Assembly: GCA_002009975.1 (NCBI GenBank)
Contig: MTLP01000028.1
Location: 44,534 to 108,533, forward strand
Length of the DNA stretch: 64,000 nucleotides
Source: Thermococcus sp. JdFR-02
GTDB lineage: Archaea > Methanobacteriota_B > Thermococci > Thermococcales > Thermococcaceae
Direction of reading: 5' to 3'
Below are positions 28,541 to 37,991 of this stretch, one piece after another. Position 1 is the first letter of the stretch. Every line of letters begins with the position of its first letter. The position numbers and the translations under genes were made by a program. The notes under the pieces are model-generated. The model saw nothing but the letters and a program-made list of their open reading frames with translations, ran no database searches and was not told the DNA's origin.

Positions 28541-30262
28541 ATGAAAAAGGAGAGCGAGAGATATATCCGGAGATGGATCATAGTTTTGAGCTTTTCCATC
28601 ATTGCTGGCATAGTTGGAGGTTTAGGAGCTTTAGCATTTAGAGGAACAATTATTTTAGCTCAAAGGTTTTTCTTTGGTTTCCTTCTTCCAAAGGTGTCTT
28701 TAAATGTTAACGGCTTAAACTTGGGTTATATTCTCTTGCCAGCTTTGGGTGGTCTTTTAGTTGCTCCTTTAATAAAAAAGGCACCGGAGATTAAGGGAAA
28801 TGGTGTCCCAGAGATCATTGAAGCTGTTATATTTAAAGGTGGTATGATTAAAAGGGAATTGACTTTCTTGAAGATAGTTGCAACATCAATAACAATTGGC
28901 TCTGGGGGAAGTGCTGGTAGGGAAGGTCCCATAGGATTTATAGGTGCTTCTTTAGCCTCAACCTTAGCTCAAGCCTTTAAGCTTTCAAAGGAAATGAGGA
29001 AGCTTTTAACCACCTGTGGACTAGCAGCGGGAATAGCGGGTATTTTTAACACACCCTTGGCTGGGGCTATGTTTGCTTTAGAAGTAATTTACAATGGGGC
29101 ATTTTCAATAAACATAGTCCCAATACTTCTCTCAGCAATTGTTGGAAATTCCGTAACCCTTTTTGTTTTGGGAGATGCCTTTGAGCTTTCTATCCCCCCA
29201 AACTTATCAATAAATCACAGAGAACTCGTGCTCTTTTTCTTAATGGGATTGTTTTTTGGAGTGTTAGCGGCTTTCCTTGTAAAATCTTTTTACATGTTAA
29301 TAGATAAGTTTGAAAACTTAAACCTTCCATTTCTATTAAAACCTGCTTTGGGTGGTTTATTTGTTGGATTTATTGGGATGTTTTTCCCCCATTATGGAAT
29401 TTTTGGGATTGGGTATGAGGGTATGAGGTTAGCCATTAATGGACTCTTGCCTTTAAAGCTCCTAATCCTCCTCGGCATAGCAAAGATTTTAGCAACATCC
29501 TTAACCCTATCATCTGGTCATAGTGGTGGAATATTTGCTCCAAGTTTATATATTGGAACAATGATAGGAGCAGCTTTTGGAGTTTTCTTTAAAATTCTCT
29601 TCCCAGAATTTGTGAGCAGTGAAGCTGTTTATGCATTATCTGGAATGGCTGCTTTGTTTAGTGGTGTTACTCAAGCGCCTATAACTCAAATATTAATGAT
29701 AGCTGAACTAACTAGGAGCTACGCTATTTTACCAGCTGTCATGAGTTCATCGGTAATAAGCTTCTTAGTAGCAAGGTATTTTCTTAAAGGTTCTTCAGTT
29801 TATACTTTAAAGCTTGAAAGGAAGGGACTTCGTGTAAAGGCTGGAAGACCAGCAATTCTTTCAACGATAACTGTTGAGGAAATCATGACAAAAAATCCAG
29901 TGTTTCTGAATATCTCAGACACAATCTCTGATGTTGAACACCTAATAGCCAAAACTGGGCATGATTATTATCCTGTAGTAGATGAAGAGCTTAGAGTCGT
30001 GGGGATAATTGGAATAAGAGATTTAATAAAGTGCTCTCCAGACGCTAAGCTTTTACCAATACGTGAGTTTTTAGATAACAATACTTTTGTCACAATTTAT
30101 CCAAGCGAAACAGCACAAGACGCTTTGGATAAAATGATAAAATGCAATTTGAATCTTATTCCAGTGATTAATAAAGAAGACAAGAGGCTTATTGGAGTTG
30201 TAACGAAGAGTGATATTTACAAAGCATATTATCTAAGTGTCGAAAGGGAGTATATTGAATAA
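28541..30262 (+). CDS. ClC chloride channel/transporter with tandem CBS domains
   Basis: GNGVP, GREGP, GGIFAP motifs; C-terminal CBS pair. Confidence 0.93.
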   Translation: MKKESERYIRRWIIVLSFSIIAGIVGGLGALAFRGTIILAQRFFFGFLLPKVSLNVNGLNLGYILLPALGGLLVAPLIKKAPEIKGNGVPEIIEAVIFKGGMIKRELTFLKIVATSITIGSGGSAGREGPIGFIGASLASTLAQAFKLSKEMRKLLTTCGLAAGIAGIFNTPLAGAMFALEVIYNGAFSINIVPILLSAIVGNSVTLFVLGDAFELSIPPNLSINHRELVLFFLMGLFFGVLAAFLVKSFYMLIDKFENLNLPFLLKPALGGLFVGFIGMFFPHYGIFGIGYEGMRLAINGLLPLKLLILLGIAKILATSLTLSSGHSGGIFAPSLYIGTMIGAAFGVFFKILFPEFVSSEAVYALSGMAALFSGVTQAPITQILMIAELTRSYAILPAVMSSSVISFLVARYFLKGSSVYTLKLERKGLRVKAGRPAILSTITVEEIMTKNPVFLNISDTISDVEHLIAKTGHDYYPVVDEELRVVGIIGIRDLIKCSPDAKLLPIREFLDNNTFVTIYPSETAQDALDKMIKCNLNLIPVINKEDKRLIGVVTKSDIYKAYYLSVEREYIE

Positions 30263-30270
30263 AAGAAAAT

Positions 30271-31134
30271 TTATCCTAGCTTTGCTTTCATTCCAATGAG
30301 ATAGAAAAGCAATTTTGCTCCAGTTAAAGCGGTTATATCACCAAGTTCTGTTCCAGCAACTTCCATTATGTCAATTCCAGCAATTTTCTTATTTTTGATA
30401 AGCCATTCTAAAGCTTCAATTACTTCCCAAAAGCTTAAACCTCCAGCTTCTGGTGTTCCAGTACTTGGAACCATTGAAAGGTCGAAGACATCTATATCAA
30501 TTGACAAGTAGATAGGCTCTGGGAGGTCTTTAACTATTTCAATAAACTTGCCAACATTGTAATCTCTTGCATGAATCCAGTGAATCTTTTTCTCTTTGGC
30601 GTATTCAACTTCTTCTTTTATACCGCTCCTAATTCCAAATTCTGCTATTTCAATTCCAAGCTCTGAAACTCTCCTCGCTATACAAGCATGATCCCATTTT
30701 TCCTCTTGATATGTATCCCTTAAATCTAAATGGGCATCAAAAACGACGTAGCTCTTTGGATTTAGAGCTTTAACTGGTGGATAAGTCATTAAGTGCTCCC
30801 CACCCAAGATTATAGGTAAAGCGTTTGGATTGGCTTCTTTTAACTCTTCAACCGTTGCAATTCCCCTCTTTATAGTTTCTAGCGGATTTCCTGCAACGAT
30901 ATCTAAGTCTCCAATGTCTGCTATTTTTAAATCAGCTAAATCAACATCATAGTCTAAAATATAGCTCTCCAAATTTATCGTTGCTTGCCTTATTAGCGTT
31001 GGTCCAAATCTTGCTCCAGGTTTATATGAAGTAGTTGAATCAAAAGGAATACCTAAAATGACGAAGTCAGCTTTTTCAACATCTACTAATGGCAATGCAG
31101 TTTTTATGGTTTCGTATGTGTAGAAGAATTCCAT
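30271..31134 (-). CDS. speB: Agmatinase / aminopropylagmatine ureohydrolase
   Basis: GARFGP, GGEH, FDAHLD, SIDIDVFD, TGTPEAGG. Confidence 0.93.
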   Translation of the reverse strand: MEFFYTYETIKTALPLVDVEKADFVILGIPFDSTTSYKPGARFGPTLIRQATINLESYILDYDVDLADLKIADIGDLDIVAGNPLETIKRGIATVEELKEANPNALPIILGGEHLMTYPPVKALNPKSYVVFDAHLDLRDTYQEEKWDHACIARRVSELGIEIAEFGIRSGIKEEVEYAKEKKIHWIHARDYNVGKFIEIVKDLPEPIYLSIDIDVFDLSMVPSTGTPEAGGLSFWEVIEALEWLIKNKKIAGIDIMEVAGTELGDITALTGAKLLFYLIGMKAKLG

Positions 31135-31235
31135 TCTCACCACCTAAAGAGGATTTGGTATTTAAGTTATAAGATTTACGAGATTGTTGTTTTTCAAATG
31201 TCCATATATGAACAACTGTGAACTTTCCCATAACA

Positions 31236-31272
31236 TTTATATATTTCTTCTACACTTTGTAGGTATAGTGTA
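31236..31272 (+). promoter_or_regulatory. Promoter of the sugar cassette: TATA box plus downstream inverted repeat
   Basis: TTTATATA at 31236-31243; TACACT-N10-AGTGTA at 31251-31272. Confidence 0.6.
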
Positions 31273-31296
31273 CTAAAAATACAATAGGTGTTGGAC

Positions 31297-32655
31297 ATGA
31301 AGAAAAAAGCCGCGTTTGGAATTTTGTTGTTAGGTGTTTTTGTTTTTGGAGTAATGGCAAGTGGTTGTTTGCAAAAGCAGGGAACTACAACTACCCCTAC
31401 TGAGAGCAAAGCAGAGGAAACAAAAGAAGAAATTAAGATTGTTGAACTTGAATTTTGGCATGGAATTGAAGCTCCAGAAAACCAAAAGGTGTTAGAAGAG
31501 CTTGTTAAGAGGTTTGAGGAAACTCATCCAAATATTAAGATAAAGATTGTTAACTATGGCGCTCAAGATAAGGCAGTGCCAAAGATAATGTCTGCTGTTC
31601 AAGCTGGGACTCCACCTGACTTAGTTTGGCTTAACCCAGCACAAACAGGCTTCTTCGCTGAAGCTGGAGTTTTGGCACCAGTTGAAGATTTTATAAAAAA
31701 TGATCCATCATTTAACAAGGATGACGTATACGAAGGTCTTTGGGAACTTGGAACCTATAAAGGTAAAATTTACACTGCACCTTTTGACACTAACAACTTA
31801 GCTATTTATTATAACAAAGAGCTATTCAAGGAAGCGGGGCTCGATCCAGAGGCTTATATGGGCAAAGCATTAACATGGGAAGAATTTAGGGAATTAGCAA
31901 AGAAGCTTACAAAGGATAAAGATGGGGATGGAAAGATTGATCAATATGGCTTTATGGTCCCATTTGGAAGGTTAGAATGGACAGTTTGGACATGGGAGGT
32001 CTTCTTATGGTCAGCTGGTGGTGAGTTATTGACAGAAGATCAAAGCAAACCAATATTTGCAAGTGAAGCTGGGATAAAAGCTCTTCAATATTGGGTTGAT
32101 TTAGTTTATAAGGACAAAGTTGCGAAGTTAAGTGAAGCAAACGCAGGCTATAAGTTAGATGACTTCTTTGCTGGAAGAGTAGCTATGATGATTAATGGTC
32201 CATGGAATTTCCCAGTTCTTAAGAGTGAAGGATGGCTGGAGAAGACAGGGGTAATGTTAATGCCTTATGACAAGAGAATTGCCACAAACATTGGTGGAGA
32301 AAACTTGTTCATTTTCAAGACAACTCCTGAAAGAGAAAAAGCTGCTTGGGAGTTTGCTAAGTTTGTTATGAGTCCAGAGTTCCAAGTTCCATGGGCATTA
32401 AAAACTGGTTACTTGCCAGTCTGTAAGAGTGCTTTAGAGAATCCAGAATACAAAAAGTTCCTAGAGGAGAACGTGTTCATTAAAATATATGTCGAGAATC
32501 TTCAATATGGTAAAGCAAGACCTCCAGTTCCCCAATACCCCGAGATGTCAGCGGCAATTGGACAAGCTATTGAAGCCGCACTGTTGCAAAAGAAAGACCC
32601 AGAAACTGCTTTAAAAGAAGCTCAAACAAAAATTGAAGAATTGTTTAAGTCTTGA
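31297..32655 (+). CDS. Carbohydrate ABC transporter substrate-binding lipoprotein (CUT1)
   Basis: Signal peptide with MASGC lipobox, Thr-rich linker, LEFWHG, AIYYNKELF, GRVAMMINGPW. Confidence 0.93.
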   Translation: MKKKAAFGILLLGVFVFGVMASGCLQKQGTTTTPTESKAEETKEEIKIVELEFWHGIEAPENQKVLEELVKRFEETHPNIKIKIVNYGAQDKAVPKIMSAVQAGTPPDLVWLNPAQTGFFAEAGVLAPVEDFIKNDPSFNKDDVYEGLWELGTYKGKIYTAPFDTNNLAIYYNKELFKEAGLDPEAYMGKALTWEEFRELAKKLTKDKDGDGKIDQYGFMVPFGRLEWTVWTWEVFLWSAGGELLTEDQSKPIFASEAGIKALQYWVDLVYKDKVAKLSEANAGYKLDDFFAGRVAMMINGPWNFPVLKSEGWLEKTGVMLMPYDKRIATNIGGENLFIFKTTPEREKAAWEFAKFVMSPEFQVPWALKTGYLPVCKSALENPEYKKFLEENVFIKIYVENLQYGKARPPVPQYPEMSAAIGQAIEAALLQKKDPETALKEAQTKIEELFKS

Positions 32656-32686
32656 CATTTTTATTTTTATTTTTGGAGGTGAGGAA

Positions 32687-33571
32687 ATGAGAGCATTTCC
32701 TAATAGAGAGCTGAGACATAACCTTGAAGCTTACACTTTTCTTGCACCTGCTTTAACTATCATGATCATCTTCTTAGCTTACCCAGTTCTGAACCTATTT
32801 TACATAAGCTTTTTTGATTGGAGAGGATTAGGAGCTAGGCATTTCGTCTTCCTTGATAATTATAAGATGCTTTTACGAAATGAGGAGTTTAGATTAGTTT
32901 TTAAAAACACCCTTATCTATATTCTTGGAGTAGTTCCAACCACGATGGTTTTCTCACTTTTTGCAGCTGTTTTGTTAAATTCAAAAATTAAGCTTAGGGG
33001 ATTTTATAGGACTTCAATTTTTTCTCCTACTGCAATATCATTTGTAGCAACTGGTATCATCTGGGTTTGGATGTTTAACTTAGATTATGGGCTTGTTAAT
33101 AGAGTTTTGAATGCTTTAGGTTTTTCAGTAATAGACTGGCTTAGAAGCACACCTTGGGCAATGGTTGCTGTTATAATAGCCACTGTTTGGGCAAGAGTTG
33201 GCTACTTTATGGTAATATACTTAGCAGGACTTCAAACCATTCCAGAGGATTATTACGAAGCATCGGATATTGATGGAGCTAATTCACTTCAAAAATTCCT
33301 TCATGTAACACTACCATTGCTAAAGCCAACCCACGTTTTAGTTCTTGTCATGCTCACAATTTTTTCATTTAGAGACTTTGATCAGATTTACACAATGACA
33401 GGGGGCGGACCTTTGATGTCAACAACAACCTTAGCTTATTATATTTATGTGCTGAGCTTTGAGCGGTTTAGATTCTCCCAAGGAGCTACAGTAGCCGTTA
33501 TTTTACTCTTCCTTGTAATATTAGTACAGTATTTACAGAGGAAAGTGTTTGGAGAGGAGGCAATTTACTGA
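32687..33571 (+). CDS. Carbohydrate ABC permease (MalF-like)
   Basis: LAGLQTIPEDYYEASDIDGA EAA loop. Confidence 0.93.
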   Translation: MRAFPNRELRHNLEAYTFLAPALTIMIIFLAYPVLNLFYISFFDWRGLGARHFVFLDNYKMLLRNEEFRLVFKNTLIYILGVVPTTMVFSLFAAVLLNSKIKLRGFYRTSIFSPTAISFVATGIIWVWMFNLDYGLVNRVLNALGFSVIDWLRSTPWAMVAVIIATVWARVGYFMVIYLAGLQTIPEDYYEASDIDGANSLQKFLHVTLPLLKPTHVLVLVMLTIFSFRDFDQIYTMTGGGPLMSTTTLAYYIYVLSFERFRFSQGATVAVILLFLVILVQYLQRKVFGEEAIY

Positions 33572-33580
33572 GGTGATAAA

Positions 33581-34411
33581 ATGAAGGTTAAGACAAGGAA
33601 ATTTACCTTAAAAAGCTTAGCAATTCATGTATCAACTTGGGTTTTTATAATCATCATTATAGTACCTATCCTTTGGACTTTCTTTACATCACTTAAAACT
33701 CCCGTAGAAATAGCCAAGGGAACGATTTTACCTGAAGCTTGGAAATGGGAAAACTATAGATTAGCTTGGGAACAGGCAGAGTTTCCAAGAAAATTTTTAA
33801 ACAGTTTTATAGTGGCTATAACAGTTACCTTGGGTCAAATAGTTACTTCTGCAATGGCTGGTTATGCATTGGCAAGAATGGAATTTAAAGGGAGAGAGTT
33901 AATATTCAGCATAGCTATTGCGTCAATGCTGATCTCTGAGCAAATAATAATTGTTCCCCTTTATGTTTTATTAGCAAAGCTTGGATGGATAGACAGCTAC
34001 AAAGGATTAATGATTCCTTGGTTTTTCAATGGCTTTGGTGTTTTCTTATTTAGGCAGTTCTTTCTCACGATTCCAAAAGATATAGAAGAAGCAGCAATAG
34101 TTGATGGGGCATCACGCTTTAGAATACTTTGGCAAGTTATGTTACCTCTAGCAACTCCAGCAGTTTTGACGCTTTTCATGTTCACATTTATAGCAGAATG
34201 GAATTCCCTTTTCAAGTGGCTTATCTTGATAAAATCTCCTGAAATGAGGAACGTGCAGCTTGGCTTAACTCTCTTTCAAGAGCAATTCATTGCTCAATAC
34301 AATCTCTTAACAGCTGCAACAATAATTGTTTCTCTACCATCAGTCATACTCTTTCTAATCGGTCAAAGATACTACATCAAGGGTATTGCAATGAGCGGAG
34401 TAAAGGGGTGA
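33581..34411 (+). CDS. Carbohydrate ABC permease (MalG-like)
   Basis: RQFFLTIPKDIEEAAIVDGAS EAA loop. Confidence 0.93.
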   Translation: MKVKTRKFTLKSLAIHVSTWVFIIIIIVPILWTFFTSLKTPVEIAKGTILPEAWKWENYRLAWEQAEFPRKFLNSFIVAITVTLGQIVTSAMAGYALARMEFKGRELIFSIAIASMLISEQIIIVPLYVLLAKLGWIDSYKGLMIPWFFNGFGVFLFRQFFLTIPKDIEEAAIVDGASRFRILWQVMLPLATPAVLTLFMFTFIAEWNSLFKWLILIKSPEMRNVQLGLTLFQEQFIAQYNLLTAATIIVSLPSVILFLIGQRYYIKGIAMSGVKG

Positions 34412-34415
34412 TAAC

Positions 34416-35618
34416 ATGAGAATAGCCATGATAACTCCACATGGAGACCCATTAGGGAAGCTGGGGGAACCAGATACTGGAGGACAATGTGTTTATGTTA
34501 AGGAGTTGAGCAAGCATTTAGGGAAGCTTGGAGCTGAAGTAGATATTTTCACAAGACAAAGAGGTGGAAGAAGGGAAATAGAACAAATAAGCGAAAATGT
34601 TAGAGTTATTAGGATTGAGTGCGGACCGGAGGGATTTATTCCAAAGGAAAAGTTGATGCCATATTTACCAGAGTTTACTGAAAAAGTCGCTGACTATGTC
34701 GAAAAAAGACAGTATGACATAATTCACACCCACTACTGGGACGGTGGCTTTGTTGGGCTGAAGCTTAAAGAGCGCTTTAGGGTTAAACTGGTACACACTT
34801 CCCATTCTCTCGGAGTTTTAAAAGCTAAAGCTCTGGGAAACTTTGAGCCTTATAAAGAGAGGATTGCTCTTGAAAAAGAAATTTATGGGAAGAGTGATGC
34901 GATAATTGCAACAACGAAGATTGAAAAGAATGACATAGCAACGCTTTATGGAATAGATGAAAGTAAAATTTATGTAATCCCCATAGGAGTTGATACAACT
35001 TTTTATAAGCCAATGGGAACCAAAGGCAAACTCAAAAAAGATCTTAACCTGCCACAAATTCCATTGGTCTTTGCATTAGCAAGACTTGATCCAAGAAAGG
35101 GTCTTGACCTTCTTATAAAAAGCGTTCCTTATATTAAGAAACACTACAATGGAGACTTTTTAGTATTGATCAGCACTGGCACGGGAGCTAAGGAAGAGGA
35201 GAAGGAGATGAACAAGCTTTTAACACTAATAAGAGAGCTAGATGTGGAGAAAGAGATTAAGATAATACCAGCAATTAAGCCAATAGACCTTGTGCCGAAA
35301 TACTACTCAGCGGCAGATGTATTTGTTCTTCCATCCCCCTATGAACCCTTTGGAATAGTTATGCTTGAAGCAATGGCGTGCAAAGCTCCAATGGTTGCAA
35401 CGAAGTTTGGAGGACCAGCAGAAGTGATCCAAGATGGCTATGATGGCTTTTTAGTTGATCCAAAGGATTCTGGGGAAATGGGCAAAAAGATTGCAGAGCT
35501 TTTAAGAGATGATAAGAAAAGAGAGCTTTTTGCAGAAAGAGCATATAAAAAGGTCATGGAAAAATACTCATGGAGCAGTGTTGCAAAAGAAGTGTTAAGT
35601 CTGTTCAGGGGTCTTTAG
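34416..35618 (+). CDS. GT4 glycosyltransferase, sucrose-phosphate synthase / sucrose synthase / MfpsA-like
   Basis: PHG...DTGGQCVYVKEL, HTHYWDGG, HTSHSLG, ARLDPRKG, YEPFGIVMLEAMAC...ATKFGGP. Confidence 0.85.
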   Translation: MRIAMITPHGDPLGKLGEPDTGGQCVYVKELSKHLGKLGAEVDIFTRQRGGRREIEQISENVRVIRIECGPEGFIPKEKLMPYLPEFTEKVADYVEKRQYDIIHTHYWDGGFVGLKLKERFRVKLVHTSHSLGVLKAKALGNFEPYKERIALEKEIYGKSDAIIATTKIEKNDIATLYGIDESKIYVIPIGVDTTFYKPMGTKGKLKKDLNLPQIPLVFALARLDPRKGLDLLIKSVPYIKKHYNGDFLVLISTGTGAKEEEKEMNKLLTLIRELDVEKEIKIIPAIKPIDLVPKYYSAADVFVLPSPYEPFGIVMLEAMACKAPMVATKFGGPAEVIQDGYDGFLVDPKDSGEMGKKIAELLRDDKKRELFAERAYKKVMEKYSWSSVAKEVLSLFRGL

Positions 35619-35629
35619 GGGGGATTTTA

Positions 35630-36490
35630 TTGATAGATGTACTTTCAATAGGTGAAGTGCTTGTAGACTTAAAAATCATTGACGGAAAGATAAGCGTGCA
35701 TAGTGGAGGGTCTTGTCTCAACGTTGCTTTCTATTCAGCACAGCTTGGAGCAAGATCATCTTTTATTGGGACGGTGGGCGATGACTTTCTTGGGAGGTAC
35801 ATAACAAAAGAGCTTGAAAGCTTGGATTTTAAAATCCCCCTTTCAGTTATTAACCAAAACACCACATTAGTTCTCATAAAGTCTGAAAAAGAAAAGCTTG
35901 AACCCTTAATTTACAGGGGAGCCGATAGGTTCATAACAGAGGAGCAAATAGTTGAAAGCTGGAAAGATGCAAGAATCGTTCATACTTCAGCTTTTGCCCT
36001 TTCACTCAATCCAAGCAAGGAAGCAATTTTAAATGCATTAAAGCAGGCAAAGGAGAATGGTTCTCTAATTTCAGTTGATCCTAATTATAGAAAGGATATC
36101 TGGAAAAGATGGGGAGCTGACGAGAGGGCACTTTTAGAGGCTATTTCAATAGCCGATATTGTTAAGCCTTCAATAGAAGACGCAAAAGAGCTCTTAGGAA
36201 TAAGGGATCCAATGAAAGCTTTAAAGATTTTTAAGGGGCTTGGTGCTAAAAACGTTATATTAAGCATGGGTGCGAAAGGGGTTATTGCATTAACTGAAGA
36301 CGACAGGCTTATTAATATATCGAGCAAAAGGGTTAATGTCGTGGATCCAACTGGTGCTGGAGATTCACTCCTGGGTACAATATTAGCAAAGTTTTCAAGG
36401 GGTTATGATATAGAAGAAGCAATAGAAGTTGGCACAGAAGTTGCGGCTAAAGTTGTCAGCACAGAAGGTACGCTAGTTAAGGTGGTATAG
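35630..36490 (+). CDS. PfkB-family carbohydrate kinase (fructokinase-like)
   Basis: IGEVLVD, GTVGDDFLG, YRGAD, DPNYR, VVDPTGAGD; probable TTG start after a G-rich RBS. Confidence 0.88.
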   Translation: MIDVLSIGEVLVDLKIIDGKISVHSGGSCLNVAFYSAQLGARSSFIGTVGDDFLGRYITKELESLDFKIPLSVINQNTTLVLIKSEKEKLEPLIYRGADRFITEEQIVESWKDARIVHTSAFALSLNPSKEAILNALKQAKENGSLISVDPNYRKDIWKRWGADERALLEAISIADIVKPSIEDAKELLGIRDPMKALKIFKGLGAKNVILSMGAKGVIALTEDDRLINISSKRVNVVDPTGAGDSLLGTILAKFSRGYDIEEAIEVGTEVAAKVVSTEGTLVKVV

Positions 36491-37492
36491 ATGGAAAGGT
36501 TGCTTGAGAAATTCAAAGAATTCGGCTTTACCAAATATGAAGCCTTGGCTTATCTTACTCTTTTAGCCTATGGATCTCTAACTGCAAGAGGAATTTCAAA
36601 GAGAGCTCAAATACCATACAATAGAACTTACGATGTTCTAGCTTCCTTAATTGAAAAAGGCTTTGTTCAAGAGCTTGAGGGCAAATCAAGGACATTTATA
36701 GCTGTTGAGCCAGATGTTGCTTTTCATAGGTATTCCAAGGCATTAGAGCAGCTTAAAGAGGAAGTTAAAAGAGCAGCTGAAAACTTAAGAGTTGAGGAAA
36801 GGGAATATGCTATTTGGAGGTTTTCTTCTCCAGAAGAAGTTCTTATAAGCCTGAAGAACATGATGAAGAATACTACCTTTGAGTTTACACTTTTAGCTCC
36901 AAACAATTTCTTGTTTCAAATAACGGACGAATTAAAGGAGCTTTTGAAAAGAGGGGTAACGCTTTCTGTTTACACTGATGAAGATGTGGAGCTTGGATTA
37001 GGTGGAAACATTTTTGTTAGGATTACAGATAAAACGGGGCATATAATAGCTTTAAGTGATATAAAAGAGGTTTTGGTTTCTCCAAGCTTGGCTTTTGAGG
37101 TTGGAAGTGAACTACCTTCTGGTTTTAAGTCTAACTTTCCGGAGATACTTTTCTCCTATTACATTTATATTAGGGATGTCTTTAACTCTTCAAAGCTCTT
37201 AGATTTCAATGTAGAAAGCTTCAATGAAAAAGAACTCCGCTTTGTAGTGTGCTATCATATAACCCAGATTCTTGAGAAGTTCTTCAACAAAGGATTTGAT
37301 GTTAAAGCTGAAATCCATACAACAACGGGGAATATTTTGGAGGGGAATGTGGTGGGGTTCATTGACAACAAAGTGGTAAACAACTTCTCTTTGGATATAA
37401 ATGGAACAAAAGTCACTGTTGGGGGTCCATTTTCGATTATTGAAGAGTATGAAGAAGAAGGGACTATCCTTTACCCACAAAAGAGAACATAA
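36491..37492 (+). CDS. TrmB-family sugar-responsive transcriptional regulator
   Basis: FGFTKYEALAYLTLL...IPYNRTYDVLASL winged HTH; C-terminal VTVGG sugar-binding region. Confidence 0.92.
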   Translation: MERLLEKFKEFGFTKYEALAYLTLLAYGSLTARGISKRAQIPYNRTYDVLASLIEKGFVQELEGKSRTFIAVEPDVAFHRYSKALEQLKEEVKRAAENLRVEEREYAIWRFSSPEEVLISLKNMMKNTTFEFTLLAPNNFLFQITDELKELLKRGVTLSVYTDEDVELGLGGNIFVRITDKTGHIIALSDIKEVLVSPSLAFEVGSELPSGFKSNFPEILFSYYIYIRDVFNSSKLLDFNVESFNEKELRFVVCYHITQILEKFFNKGFDVKAEIHTTTGNILEGNVVGFIDNKVVNNFSLDINGTKVTVGGPFSIIEEYEEEGTILYPQKRT

Positions 37493-37501
37493 GGAAGAAA
37501 G

Positions 37502-37912
37502 CTACTCTCCCTTTGTCTTCATGATTTTAATTCTTCCAAGGGTTTCCCAGTATTCTACGTTTATCCCCTCTGTTATCTTATCCTTGATTTCATCGGCAAC
37601 TCCGCTTTCTATTGGAACATCAAATATCTCATAGGTTTCCATATCCATTAGTTGCACTGTATCTGGTGTAATTGCAATAATTTGTCCAGTTCTTTTGTCG
37701 ATGATTGGAACATCAACTTCAGCGCTTGTTGGCTTAACTATGCTCCTTGTCTTTTTGTCAAATATTCCAACGGCATCAATTCTTGCCTTTGCTGAACCGT
37801 GCTTACCTGGGGAAGAAATGGAGATGTTGACTATTCTGCATGGCTCACCATCAATAATAATGTACCTACCAACTTTAAGCTTTCCAACTACAGCTCTTGT
37901 TTTGTCTCCCAT
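37502..37912 (-). CDS. eif5a: Translation factor aIF5A
   Basis: [12 protein letters not shown] hypusine loop. Confidence 0.97.
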
Positions 37913-37991
37913 ATTCAAACCTCCATAAGCGCTCTAAGAGTGCTTCGATATAGTTCTTTAAAAAATTTTTGAAGGAGTGTTTGGGTATTTT

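Follow-up and report, generated by a model that had tools for sequence, protein, structure and literature searches.

What does a compact sugar-import cassette do between the speB and aIF5A genes of Thermococcus sp. JdFR-02? The window, a stretch of 64,000 nucleotides, holds it at positions 31236-37492, where a predicted promoter precedes six genes: one for a binding protein, two for permeases, and one each for a glycosyltransferase of family GT4, a kinase of the PfkB family and TrmB. We tentatively read the cassette, as something a little less than probable, as a TrmB-repressed system for the uptake and catabolism of sucrose, or of an alpha-glucosyl fructoside closely resembling it, in which the kinase would act first and the GT4 would run the reaction of sucrose-phosphate synthase (SPS) in reverse. 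The six genes are co-oriented, close-packed ORFs on the plus strand, and the ORF listing, together with the Pfam and NCBIfam assignments, agrees with the initial annotation on this layout. The features are:

30271..31143, minus strand: speB, agmatinase (TIGR01230, 247.4 bits against a cut-off of 174.3); left flank, outside the cassette
31236..31243, plus strand: TATA-box-like TTTATATA, predicted cassette promoter, with an A/T-rich core conserved upstream
31271..31281, plus strand: palindrome TACTAAAAATA of the form TACT-N3-AATA, resembling a TrmB operator and lying downstream of the TATA box, ahead of the start codon
31297..32655, plus strand: CUT1-family substrate-binding protein (Pfam SBP_bac_8 and SBP_bac_1)
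32687..33571, plus strand: ABC permease 1, MalF/UgpA-like (PF00528, 76 bits)
33581..34411, plus strand: ABC permease 2, MalG/GlcU-like (PF00528, 70.8 bits)
34416..35618, plus strand: GT4 retaining glycosyltransferase, SPS-related subfamily (Pfam Glyco_transf_4 and Glycos_transf_1; solved relatives, ligand-residue map, tree, AF2 model)
35630..36490, plus strand: PfkB-family sugar kinase, fructokinase-like (PF00294, 167 bits)
36491..37492, plus strand: TrmB-family sugar-sensing repressor with effector domain (PF01978 and PF11495)
37502..37918, minus strand: aIF5A (NF003076, 191.5 bits; cut-off 138); right flank, outside the cassette

speB and aIF5A are directly adjacent in 17 of the 30 Thermococcaceae loci examined, which indicates that the cassette is an insertion into this pair; 9 bases separate the stop of trmB from that of aIF5A, and the GC content of the cassette (0.36-0.40) does not differ from that of its flanks. 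The same gene order recurs in four other Thermococcales genomes, with proteins 59-88% identical, and this recurrence argues that the arrangement is more than chance. As had been noted initially, the families of the six ORFs (Pfam, NCBIfam) include no glycoside hydrolase or phosphatase. Nor is there an ABC ATPase gene inside the cassette by the same models, and the term 'self-contained' used before does not hold, the ATPase gene being missing from the window. malK comes after trmB in all four other loci with the same cassette (L043-L046), and the window copy has either lost it or never had it.

A promoter of its own, also claimed initially, is plausible for the cassette. Upstream of the cassette, an A/T-rich TATATA core lines up between L044-L046 and the window, and both the TATA-like element and the palindrome are kept upstream of the binding-protein gene in all five loci with the cassette. 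The palindrome has one mismatch to the published TrmB site, TACT-N3-AGTA in the available sections of PMC4158304; L043-L046 carry that very word at the equivalent position, and the extended form GTACT-N3-A[AG]TAC occurs once on the two strands of the 64-kb window. The TrmB protein itself matches Pyrococcus furiosus TrmB (3qph) with 189 bits and keeps the DNA-reading residues Y50 and D51. Of the six positions at which TrmB holds the alpha-glucosyl ring of its maltose or sucrose ligand, four are unchanged (N305, G320, I325, E326), with one conservative change besides; V324 is replaced by I, M321 by P and, at the site that holds the second maltose ring, Ser229 by I.

The initial annotation had likened this layout to the TrmB-regulated trehalose/maltose (TM) cluster, and the parallel stands. 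In Thermococcus litoralis and P. furiosus the cluster reads malE-malF-malG-treT-trmB-malK, with frk beside it (PMC4158304). As in the cassette, an importer of the CUT1 family comes first, then a retaining GT-B glycosyltransferase of the reversible kind, then TrmB, with an operator of the TACT-N3-AGTA type. L043-L046 likewise end with malK, and a PfkB kinase is associated with both systems. However, the glycosyltransferase of the TM cluster is TreT, which the cassette GT4 is not, and TMBP (1eu8, 93 bits) is no more than a distant relative of the cassette binding protein. The cassette TrmB, 38% identical to the TM-type TrmB of the same genome, scores 246 bits on NF040851 (cut-off 600) and is therefore a paralogue of the TM-cluster protein, and the window copy is without malK.

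Which sugar does the importer carry? The gene neighbourhoods of its bacterial orthologues (binding protein 45-58% identical, permeases 41-56%) point to sucrose. The transporter lies beside a full sucrose synthase and an SPS-SPP fusion in L148, GH13, SPS-SPP and PfkB in L145, SPS-SPP in L152, a GH32-like protein in L150, an amylosucrase-sized GH13 in L133, and a GH15-like protein with a more typical fructokinase in L129 and L130; members of this transporter family also adjoin SPS-SPP genes in Acidobacteriota and Verrucomicrobiota. These sucrose gene clusters would fit the earlier proposal of a transporter for a fructose-containing disaccharide. The binding protein, in which an N-terminal hydrophobic segment and Cys precede a Thr-rich linker, probably takes a ligand of the sucrose type. 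It is present in 5 of 99 Thermococcales genomes, and the GT4 adjoins it in every one. Permease 2 reaches 138 bits on NF040932 GlcU, under the family cut-off.

The GT4 had been described as SPS-like and distinct from TreT, and both statements are borne out. Its best solved sequence relative is an SPS (6kih, 211 bits, about 31% identity), Halothermothrix orenii SPS is among the best four, and a Foldseek comparison with solved structures places four kinds nearest, namely MshA, SPS from two species and GlgM, ahead of sucrose synthase. It scores 197.7 bits on the SPS equivalog (cut-off 576) and 92.6-109 bits on the sucrose synthase model TIGR02470 (cut-off 810), and its top NCBIfam match is MshA. 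In the tree it falls in the SPS/sucrose-synthase clade (31 rows) as a separate subfamily. It is neither TreT nor MshA: the GT4 lies outside the MshA-like rows, and the TreT model is missing from the 25 best NCBIfam families listed (lowest 49.6 bits); the real TreT of the same genome scores 825 bits on that model.

Like the SPS of cyanobacteria and H. orenii (6kih, 2r60), the protein is a GT4 enzyme of GT-B fold, and the residues that contact the fructose ring and its 6-phosphate, the glucose ring and the phosphates of the nucleotide are conserved in it. The residues of T. elongatus SPS with bound sucrose-6-phosphate have these counterparts: Q24 for Gln51 (fructose hydroxyl), K77 and R149 for Arg105 and Arg178 (phosphate), H130 for His158 and E310 for Glu331. 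It differs from SPS in scoring under the equivalog cut-off, in its separate clade and in having no SPP partner. Since it is encoded in one operon with an importer and a repressor, its physiological direction would probably be the reverse of that of SPS, and we propose it as a reverse-acting (hexosyl-)fructose-6-phosphate synthase. Q24, K77, H130, S131, K136 and R149 are present in all 19 kinase-linked GT4s and in all four SPS references, whereas sucrose synthase, a control of a single sequence whose alignment near position 149 shifts by two residues between two alignments, has R at position 77, A at 131 and S/Q at 149. S131 and R149 are both phosphate ligands in SPS or MshA. All 19 GT4s also have the GGQ motif common to sucrose synthase, in place of the GGM of MshA-like rows.

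The kinase, too, appears fructokinase-like, as first described. The fructose ligands of Vibrio cholerae fructokinase are kept at seven of seven positions, two with conservative changes (D26 to E, D30, G45, A46 to S, N49, R176, D266), the Arg that contacts the anomeric O2' among them. Among proteins of solved structure the best match of the kinase is an H. orenii fructokinase homologue (3hj6, 140 bits), and in NCBIfam it is an IolC domain. We propose either a 6F-kinase of the imported fructoside or a fructokinase.

How widely do these genes travel together? The GT4 occurs in 9 of 99 Thermococcales genomes, and with 10 loci from other phyla (L048-L056, L058; GT4s 40-48% identical) these make up the 19 loci, which span Thermococcales, an Asgard archaeon, Thermotogota, Bipolaricaulota, Fidelibacterota and Chloroflexota. 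In every locus the gene directly 3' of the GT4 gene encodes a kinase (PfkB in 12; in the other 7 a P-loop kinase of uridine-kinase/PRK-like type), 17 of 19 contain a CUT1 permease pair, and a sugar regulator lies in or directly adjoins all of them, namely TrmB in archaea (10 loci) and DeoR in bacteria (9 loci). The two without permeases are L055, a 2.9-kb contig, and L047, where no transporter lies within 8 kb of GT4-PfkB-TrmB. A different transporter stands ahead of the GT4-PfkB pair in L040-L042, from three genomes.

What we infer from this material is which sugar is handled, in which direction the GT4 works, whether it acts before or after the kinase, and which nucleotide it uses. The binding protein and permeases would import the sugar with energy from a MalK-type ATPase whose gene lies elsewhere in the genome, and the sugar would free TrmB from its TACT-N3-AATA operator. 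The kinase would phosphorylate the fructosyl 6-OH of the whole disaccharide to sucrose-6F-phosphate, which the SPS-family GT4, acting in reverse with a nucleoside diphosphate, would split into NDP-glucose and fructose-6-phosphate; the latter would enter glycolysis, the glycosidic bond energy being kept in NDP-glucose. If true, a hyperthermophilic archaeon would break down imported sucrose by a relative of plant and cyanobacterial SPS run backwards. We found no published description of the cassette in the literature searched, and the earlier remark that no archaeal version is characterised holds within that literature.

Because the 19 GT4s keep the SPS phosphate residues and the one aligned sucrose synthase has lost two of them, a phosphorylated disaccharide is the likelier GT4 substrate, with the kinase first. 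The initially proposed combination of sucrose-type import, SPS-like glycosyltransferase and kinase is supported, while its placing of the GT4 before the kinase is in doubt. The conserved GT4-kinase-importer triad and the lack of a phosphatase in the cassette, unlike the anabolic Halanaerobacter locus (LacI-PfkB-SPS-HAD-HAD, without transporter), argue for the kinase-first catabolic route, as do the Foldseek neighbours MshA, SPS and GlgM ahead of sucrose synthase. MshA and GlgM act on phosphorylated acceptors. DeoR-type regulators usually sense sugar phosphates, and DeoR in the bacterial versions would fit a pathway-specific phosphorylated intermediate. There is also a precedent in Ruminococcus gnavus E1, where, in the available sections of PMC6521584, an ABC importer, the kinase AgaSK producing sucrose phosphate and an energy-conserving cleavage by sucrose-6F-phosphate phosphorylase follow one another as proposed here; we group the phosphorylase of Thermoanaerobacterium thermosaccharolyticum with it as analogous logic. 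That system differs in using a GH13_18 phosphorylase and phosphate to give glucose-1-phosphate, where the cassette would use the GT4 and NDP to give NDP-glucose.

Against the kinase acting first, it keeps all fructose ligands, and the lid of V. cholerae fructokinase closes fully over fructose (PMC6240065), so that acceptance of a disaccharide is only putative. The transporter with hydrolase-like protein and fructokinase in L129 and L130 follows a cleave-then-phosphorylate logic, L047 has no transporter nearby and L040-L042 have a different one, and a profile search detected no similarity between the P-loop kinases and AgaSK. The SPS reaction, moreover, favours synthesis, and its reversal needs product removal.

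Could the GT4 instead cleave sucrose with NDP to NDP-glucose and fructose, as initially proposed, leaving an ordinary fructokinase to trap fructose-6-phosphate? The sucrose synthase reaction is freely reversible, the net stoichiometry is that of the kinase-first route, and sucrose synthase shares with the GT4 its tree clade, the GGQ motif and, if the proposal holds, reversible NDP-dependent cleavage of a glucosyl-fructoside. The seven retained fructokinase positions and the coupling of transporter orthologues to cleavage enzymes and fructokinase in L129, L130 and L145 favour this order, which mirrors the TreT logic of the TM cluster (PMC4158304, available sections); that cluster and a fructokinase-like gene are also carried by the same genome. 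However, S131 and R149, kept in all 19 GT4s, are missing from the aligned sucrose synthase, an enzyme of about 800 residues with N-terminal regulatory domains that the GT4 lacks, and the GT4 scores far below the cut-off on TIGR02470. Seven loci, furthermore, have the nucleoside-kinase-like P-loop kinase, a fold with only a putative fructokinase record (3c8u; E = 0.002, P-loop only). We consider this order rather unlikely, if a serious contender.

A different sugar handled by the same architecture, for example mannosylfructose (giving GDP-mannose), an isomer of the turanose or trehalulose type, or a glycosyl-polyol phosphate, seems unlikely. None of the residues read fixes the donor sugar, which could be mannose rather than glucose because a sister group (L059, L060, L062; 37-41% identity), the nearest relatives without a link to transport, adjoins genes for a mannose-1-phosphate guanylyltransferase (ManC)/PMM fusion and for an S6PP phosphatase, a gene order that would be expected if mannosylfructose-phosphate were made there. 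The MshA and IolC matches point the same way, as does the ketohexose alpha-D-tagatose, rather than sucrose, held by the closest solved binding protein (5CI5, 176 bits; available sections of PMC7676653 and PMC8938411). In L041 and L042 a GH130 beta-mannoside-phosphorylase-like gene precedes the GT4-PfkB pair; however, this GH130 transporter module also stands separately on contig C7 of the source genome, without GT4 or PfkB, so the adjacency looks incidental. The glucosyl-binding subsite retained in TrmB, the sucrose synthase, SPS-SPP and amylosucrase-sized GH13 genes beside transporter orthologues and the invariant GGQ also speak for sucrose.

It is improbable that the cassette is anabolic, with imported or internal fructose phosphorylated and converted by the GT4 to sucrose-6-phosphate and then to sucrose as compatible solute, as proposed for H. 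orenii: the PfkB-SPS pair with phosphatases in Halanaerobacter, the H. orenii relatives of both enzymes, L047 and a possible re-uptake of self-made solute in Acidobacteriota and Verrucomicrobiota would fit, but none of the five cassettes of the window's type has a phosphatase gene, one S6PP query found no relative in the genome, the importer, repressor and operator form the architecture of catabolic TrmB and DeoR systems, and sucrose is not known to be among the solutes of Thermococcales.

Three ORFs open upstream of the starts given here. That of the binding protein opens at GTG 31288, and ATG 31297, behind a conserved GGTG, is the probable start. Permease 1 opens at 32633; relatives align from residue 15-19 and a related strain has a 1-base insertion behind 32657, which makes ATG 32687 the likely start. 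The kinase ORF opens at ATG 35570, overlapping the GT4 gene, and the alignment with its relatives begins at residue 21, TTG 35630.

Six open reading frames on the + strand, separated by at most 10 bases or overlapping, occupy positions 31288-37492 of the window. According to Pfam and NCBIfam, they encode a CUT1 binding protein, two permeases, a 400-aa GT4 glycosyltransferase, a PfkB kinase and a full-length TrmB. The cassette lies between speB (agmatinase) and aIF5A, and its GC content is similar to that of these flanks. The initial annotation described a cassette devoid of glycoside hydrolase or phosphatase, and indeed neither is found among the six frames. Flanks, promoter elements and likely starts are as follows.

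30271-31143, - strand: speB, cassette flank
31236-31243, + strand: TATA-like element TTTATATA, upstream of the binding-protein gene
31271-31281, + strand: operator-like element TACTAAAAATA, 27 bases downstream of the TATA-like element, one mismatch to TACT-N3-AGTA
31297, + strand: likely ATG start of the binding protein, behind a conserved GGTG
32687, + strand: likely ATG start of permease 1
35630 (TTG) or 35570 (ATG), + strand: likely start of the PfkB kinase
37502-37918, - strand: aIF5A, cassette flank

The motif TACT-N3-AGTA, given in passages of PMC4158304 as the TrmB operator of the trehalose/maltose promoter, occurs at the same position in all four other loci with a window-type cassette, and the extended palindrome occurs only once in the window. 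The cassette TrmB scores 189 bits against P. furiosus TrmB and retains the DNA-reading residues Tyr50 and Asp51. The parts of a TrmB-regulated CUT1 operon are present (binding protein, permeases, TrmB and an operator with one mismatch) except for the ATPase, which is missing from the window: the cassette has no ABC ATPase gene, while malK follows trmB in all four sister loci (L043-L046). The nearest MalK in the genome, at 5072-6193 of contig C10, is 77% identical to the sister-locus MalK. A sigma-70 promoter and terminator scan, unsuited to archaea, returned no more sites than in shuffled sequence.

The closest named relatives are Palaeococcus pacificus (87%) and Thermococcus species, and the GT4 gene is present in 9 of 99 Thermococcales genomes (9 of the 80 high-quality ones). 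Cultured holders include a Thermococcus gorgonarius-type strain, whose cassette is complete and has malK, and T. waiotapuensis; P. pacificus represents a transporter variant. The window and L043-L046 share an identical order, binding protein-permease-permease-GT4-PfkB-TrmB, at 59-88% identity, and the binding protein occurs in exactly these five of the 99 genomes. Another locus, L047, has GT4-PfkB-TrmB only. In L040-L042, GT4-PfkB stands behind a different TrmB-controlled transporter with MalK, accompanied in two of them (L041 and L042) by a GH130 gene. Since this other transporter module also occurs, with neither GT4 nor PfkB, on contig C7 of the window's genome, the GT4-kinase pair is the constant core. 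We dropped a mannoside substrate, suggested by the GH130 beside GT4, as the main reading because the C7 module likewise carries GH130 in the absence of the pair.

That module (C7:8928-16093) consists of a TrmB-controlled ABC transporter, MalK, a GH130 protein resembling beta-1,2-mannobiose phosphorylase and a HAD protein of the beta-phosphoglucomutase family; in other genomes it adjoins the GT4-PfkB pair. A second GH130 relative lies at C7:18427-19266. Further along (C7:61000-80500) are a canonical TreT (825 bits, cut-off 775), a TM-type TrmB, a divergent ABC transporter and a fructokinase-like PfkB; beside this TreT are another TrmB-like regulator, an ABC transporter with MalK and an 832-aa GH38 protein resembling mannosylglycerate hydrolase.

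In 17 of 30 Thermococcaceae loci (L216-L244 among those examined), speB and aIF5A stand side by side in the same orientation, and the window's cassette splits this pair. In the genomes of L041 and L042 the same gap is filled by the other sugar island with GT4-PfkB. It looks like a recurrent insertion site, as at least three genomes have different sugar-utilisation islands there. Next to speB, at window 28541-30262, is a ClC chloride channel that has two CBS domains and keeps this position in many Thermococcaceae loci.

The GT4 carries the Glyco_transf_4 and Glycos_transf_1 domains of a retaining GT-B enzyme, with both glutamates of the E-x7-E nucleotide-sugar motif (E310 and E318) invariant. 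Its best solved relatives by sequence are the sucrose-phosphate synthase (SPS) of T. elongatus (211 bits), C. glutamicum MshA (202) and H. orenii SPS (167). The AF2 model (mean pLDDT 94) is closest in Foldseek to MshA, two SPS structures and GlgM, then to sucrose synthase (SuSy), with TM scores of 0.80-0.81 to 6kih and 3c4q; structural similarity to MshA equals that to SPS. Three curated models place it below their cut-offs: 197.7 bits against 576 for SPS (TIGR02472), 257 against 462 for MshA (TIGR03449), and 92.6-109.4 against 810 for SuSy (TIGR02470), in the C-terminal half only. SuSy is about 800 aa long and has SUS_N/EPBD domains.

We built a quick IQ-TREE phylogeny of 44 rows, with SH-aLRT support only; two rows are very long-branched, and L050 and L058 fall outside the main transport-linked clade. 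The nine Thermococcales GT4s form one clade (100), sister (83) to eight bacterial proteins. A 31-row clade (100) unites both groups with the SPS references, one SuSy and a group linked to ManC/PMM and S6PP, while MshA-like rows lie outside. Within it, the GT4 stands on its own branch with bacterial DeoR-GT4-kinase-ABC loci, apart from the SPS references. The SPS-like character proposed in the initial annotation is supported, though the protein scores below the curated SPS and SuSy cut-offs. Grouping with TreT or MshA, which would have spoken against that proposal, is not what we observe: the TreT model (NF041139) is not among the best 25 of 50 matching families, the lowest of these scoring 49.6 bits; the motif is GGQ rather than the GGM of MshA; and MshA-like rows stand apart in the tree. 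A tblastn search with the window GT4 did not match the genome's TreT gene at E <= 1e-6.

What does the active site suggest? Passages of PMC7264703 indicate that in T. elongatus SPS Gln51 contacts a fructose hydroxyl, Arg105 and Arg178 bind the 6-phosphate, and His158 and Glu331 the glucose. In a HMMER alignment, whose offset was checked on Glu331, Pro332, Leu335 and Glu339, SPS residues Gln51, Arg105, Arg178, His158 and Glu331 correspond to Q24, K77 (Arg to Lys), R149, H130 and E310 of the GT4. All 19 kinase-linked GT4s and all four SPS references have Q24, K77, H130, S131, K136 and R149; E310 is likewise found in all 19 kinase-linked homologues, and position 107 holds Tyr in 14 of them and Phe in the other five. 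The only SuSy aligned, a single sequence from locus L148 (none was found in the control genomes), has Arg at 77, Ala at 131 and Ser or Gln at 149. In the MshA-like row, Met stands at 24 and Thr at 131, and outgroup glycosyltransferases lack all four residues at 24, 77, 131 and 149. MshA itself binds inositol-phosphate through the equivalents of K77, Y107, S131 and R149. As the phosphate and fructose residues of SPS are retained where the SuSy and MshA-like rows differ, the acceptor or leaving-group site looks built for fructose-6-phosphate.

A locus scan with a single GT4 protein returned mainly uninformative glycosyltransferases of 24-34% identity and was replaced by an alignment-based scan. 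We examined ten loci from other phyla (L048-L056 and L058), whose GT4s are 40-48% identical. A kinase gene directly follows GT4 in all ten, a PfkB in three and a P-loop protein of about 230 aa in seven; nine have a CUT1 transporter, the tenth being a 2.9-kb contig, and the regulator is DeoR in nine and TrmB in the Asgard locus. The P-loop kinases, which resemble uridine kinase and phosphoribulokinase, are the following.

L048, 4209-4937: P-loop kinase after GT4
L049, 5031-5732: P-loop kinase after GT4
L052, 2924-3553: P-loop kinase after GT4
L053, 6165-6809: P-loop kinase after GT4
L054, 8211-8864: P-loop kinase after GT4
L055, 1735-2364: P-loop kinase after GT4
L056, 8202-8876: P-loop kinase after GT4

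Members of this family, found in Thermotogota, Bipolaricaulota and Fidelibacterota, are 49-55% identical to that of L054 and always follow an SPS-like GT4. They fall below every curated model cut-off, and their best PDB matches are an archaeal phosphoribulokinase (44.7 bits), 1rz3 and uridine kinases. A sequence link to AgaSK was dropped, as 2yfn was not retrieved from PDB at E <= 1 with either a single sequence or a 7-sequence profile. The use of two unlike kinase folds at one position speaks for a kinase step that belongs to the pathway itself.

Some relatives are arranged differently. L057 (GT4 43% identical) has no kinase, transporter or regulator, and an inositol-monophosphatase-family gene and two other glycosyltransferases are adjacent. 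In two gammaproteobacterial MAGs (L060:3286-8251 and L062:3516-8221) the nearest GT4 relatives lie behind a fusion of mannose-1-phosphate guanylyltransferase and phosphomannomutase and, in the former, an S6PP-family phosphatase; this arrangement suggests synthesis of mannosylfructose or a related solute. In the Chloroflexia loci L063 and L068 one PfkB gene lies between two different SPS-related GT4s, one HoSPS-like of about 470-530 aa and the other of about 420-440 aa. Halanaerobacter has an anabolic PfkB-SPS-phosphatase locus.

The best solved relative of the binding protein is 5CI5 (176 bits; 93 for the trehalose/maltose binding protein), crystallised with the ketohexose tagatose (PMC7676653, PMC8938411). 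The family is widespread at 40-60% identity. In a set of 80 loci, tblastn placed orthologous permeases beside the binding protein in most non-cyanobacterial ones, and about 40 cyanobacterial loci have the binding protein alone. A Pfam scan of neighbours in 12 chosen loci out of these 80 was uninformative in five (L131, L135, L139, L142 and L161) and gave the following in the others.

L148: full SuSy and SPS-SPP fusion
L145: 653-aa GH13, SPS-SPP fusion and PfkB
L150: GH32-like protein
L133: 639-aa GH13
L129 and L130: LacI, GH15-like protein of about 630 aa and fructokinase
L146: GalT-like gene

By tblastn, L152 also has SPS and S6PP matches nearby. The proteins of about 630 aa (L129:4374-6260 and L130:11189-13096, from Thermaerobacter and a Bacillaceae MAG) lie between a sucrose-type ABC transporter and the fructokinase; Pfam gives no match for them at 1e-6, their GH15-like matches (trehalase TreH1, oligosaccharide amylase) are weak, and they are candidates for a new fructoside hydrolase.

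Of the six TrmB residues that contact the non-reducing glucosyl ring of maltose or sucrose, the cassette TrmB keeps Asn305, Gly320, Ile325 and Glu326, with Val324 replaced by Ile and Met321 by Pro; at position 229, where Ser touches the second ring of maltose, it has Ile. With the glucosyl subsite mostly kept and Ser229 changed, the effector is probably an alpha-glucoside with a different second moiety. Sucrose is the most likely ligand, as the neighbourhoods of transporter orthologues and the TrmB subsite agree.

In which order would sucrose be processed? All readings here draw on sequence, gene context and homology models. We lean, at a little under an even chance, to the kinase acting first, giving sucrose-6F-phosphate, followed by reverse SPS-type cleavage to NDP-glucose and fructose-6-phosphate. 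The fructose-6-phosphate-type site, the obligatory kinase, the lack of a phosphatase, the DeoR regulators and a precedent, AgaSK with sucrose-6F-phosphate phosphorylase (in passages of PMC6521584), favour this order. An S6PP partner is absent from the cassette, and one S6PP query found no match in the genome at E <= 1e-6. The initial annotation proposed instead a SuSy-like cleavage of sucrose by NDP and then phosphorylation of fructose. The PfkB kinase scores 134.6 bits against the fructokinase model NF006957 (cut-off 450) and 139.8 against an IolC-domain model, and has L and P for the fructokinase lid residues F113 and F115. At 7 of 7 positions it has kept the residues with which V. cholerae fructokinase binds its sugar, two of them with conservative changes, and the O2'-binding Arg is among those kept; L129 and L130 follow a cleave-then-phosphorylate logic; the SuSy control is one sequence; and the SPS equilibrium favours synthesis. 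This counter-evidence keeps our preference for the kinase-first order tentative, with cleavage before phosphorylation as a less likely rival.

The kinase-first order may, with a probability we would set short of even, belong to an unrecognised form of sucrose catabolism that archaea share with several phyla of bacteria. An ATP-dependent sucrose 6F-kinase, a role filled by PfkB or the nucleoside-kinase-like P-loop protein, would be followed by a dedicated reverse-acting SPS subfamily yielding NDP-glucose and fructose-6-phosphate, with both steps tied to CUT1 import and to repression by TrmB or DeoR. Textbooks place SPS at the committed step of sucrose synthesis in plants and cyanobacteria. A catabolic role for this subfamily is supported by the fixed pairing with kinase and importer across phyla, seen in hyperthermophilic archaea, an Asgard archaeon, Thermotogota, Bipolaricaulota, Fidelibacterota and Chloroflexota. 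The trehalose/maltose cluster is well known; compared with it, the cassette is a similar import-and-cleave operon with an SPS-family enzyme in place of TreT. Full-text literature searches found no description of the cassette, and passages of PMC6981617, on the P. pacificus genome, are silent on the PAP_08230 cluster. If true, this would be a third energy-conserving sucrose split besides SuSy and the phosphorylases. It would account for SPS-like genes in non-photosynthetic anaerobes, assign a function to the nucleoside-kinase-like family, point to sucrose-type solutes as carbon sources traded in vents and sediments, and offer thermostable enzymes for NDP-glucose or sucrose-6-phosphate production.

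Contigs from two metatranscriptome libraries (X7 and X8) span nearly the whole cassette at about 97% identity. We rejected them as evidence of transcription and read them as presence of a close strain, because the opposite-strand flanks are equally covered and depth is near that of the same-sample DNA library. In marine sediment libraries, a strain about 97% identical has single-base insertions at window positions 32657, 37497 and 37971, all intergenic or before the likely permease 1 start; its cassette is otherwise intact.
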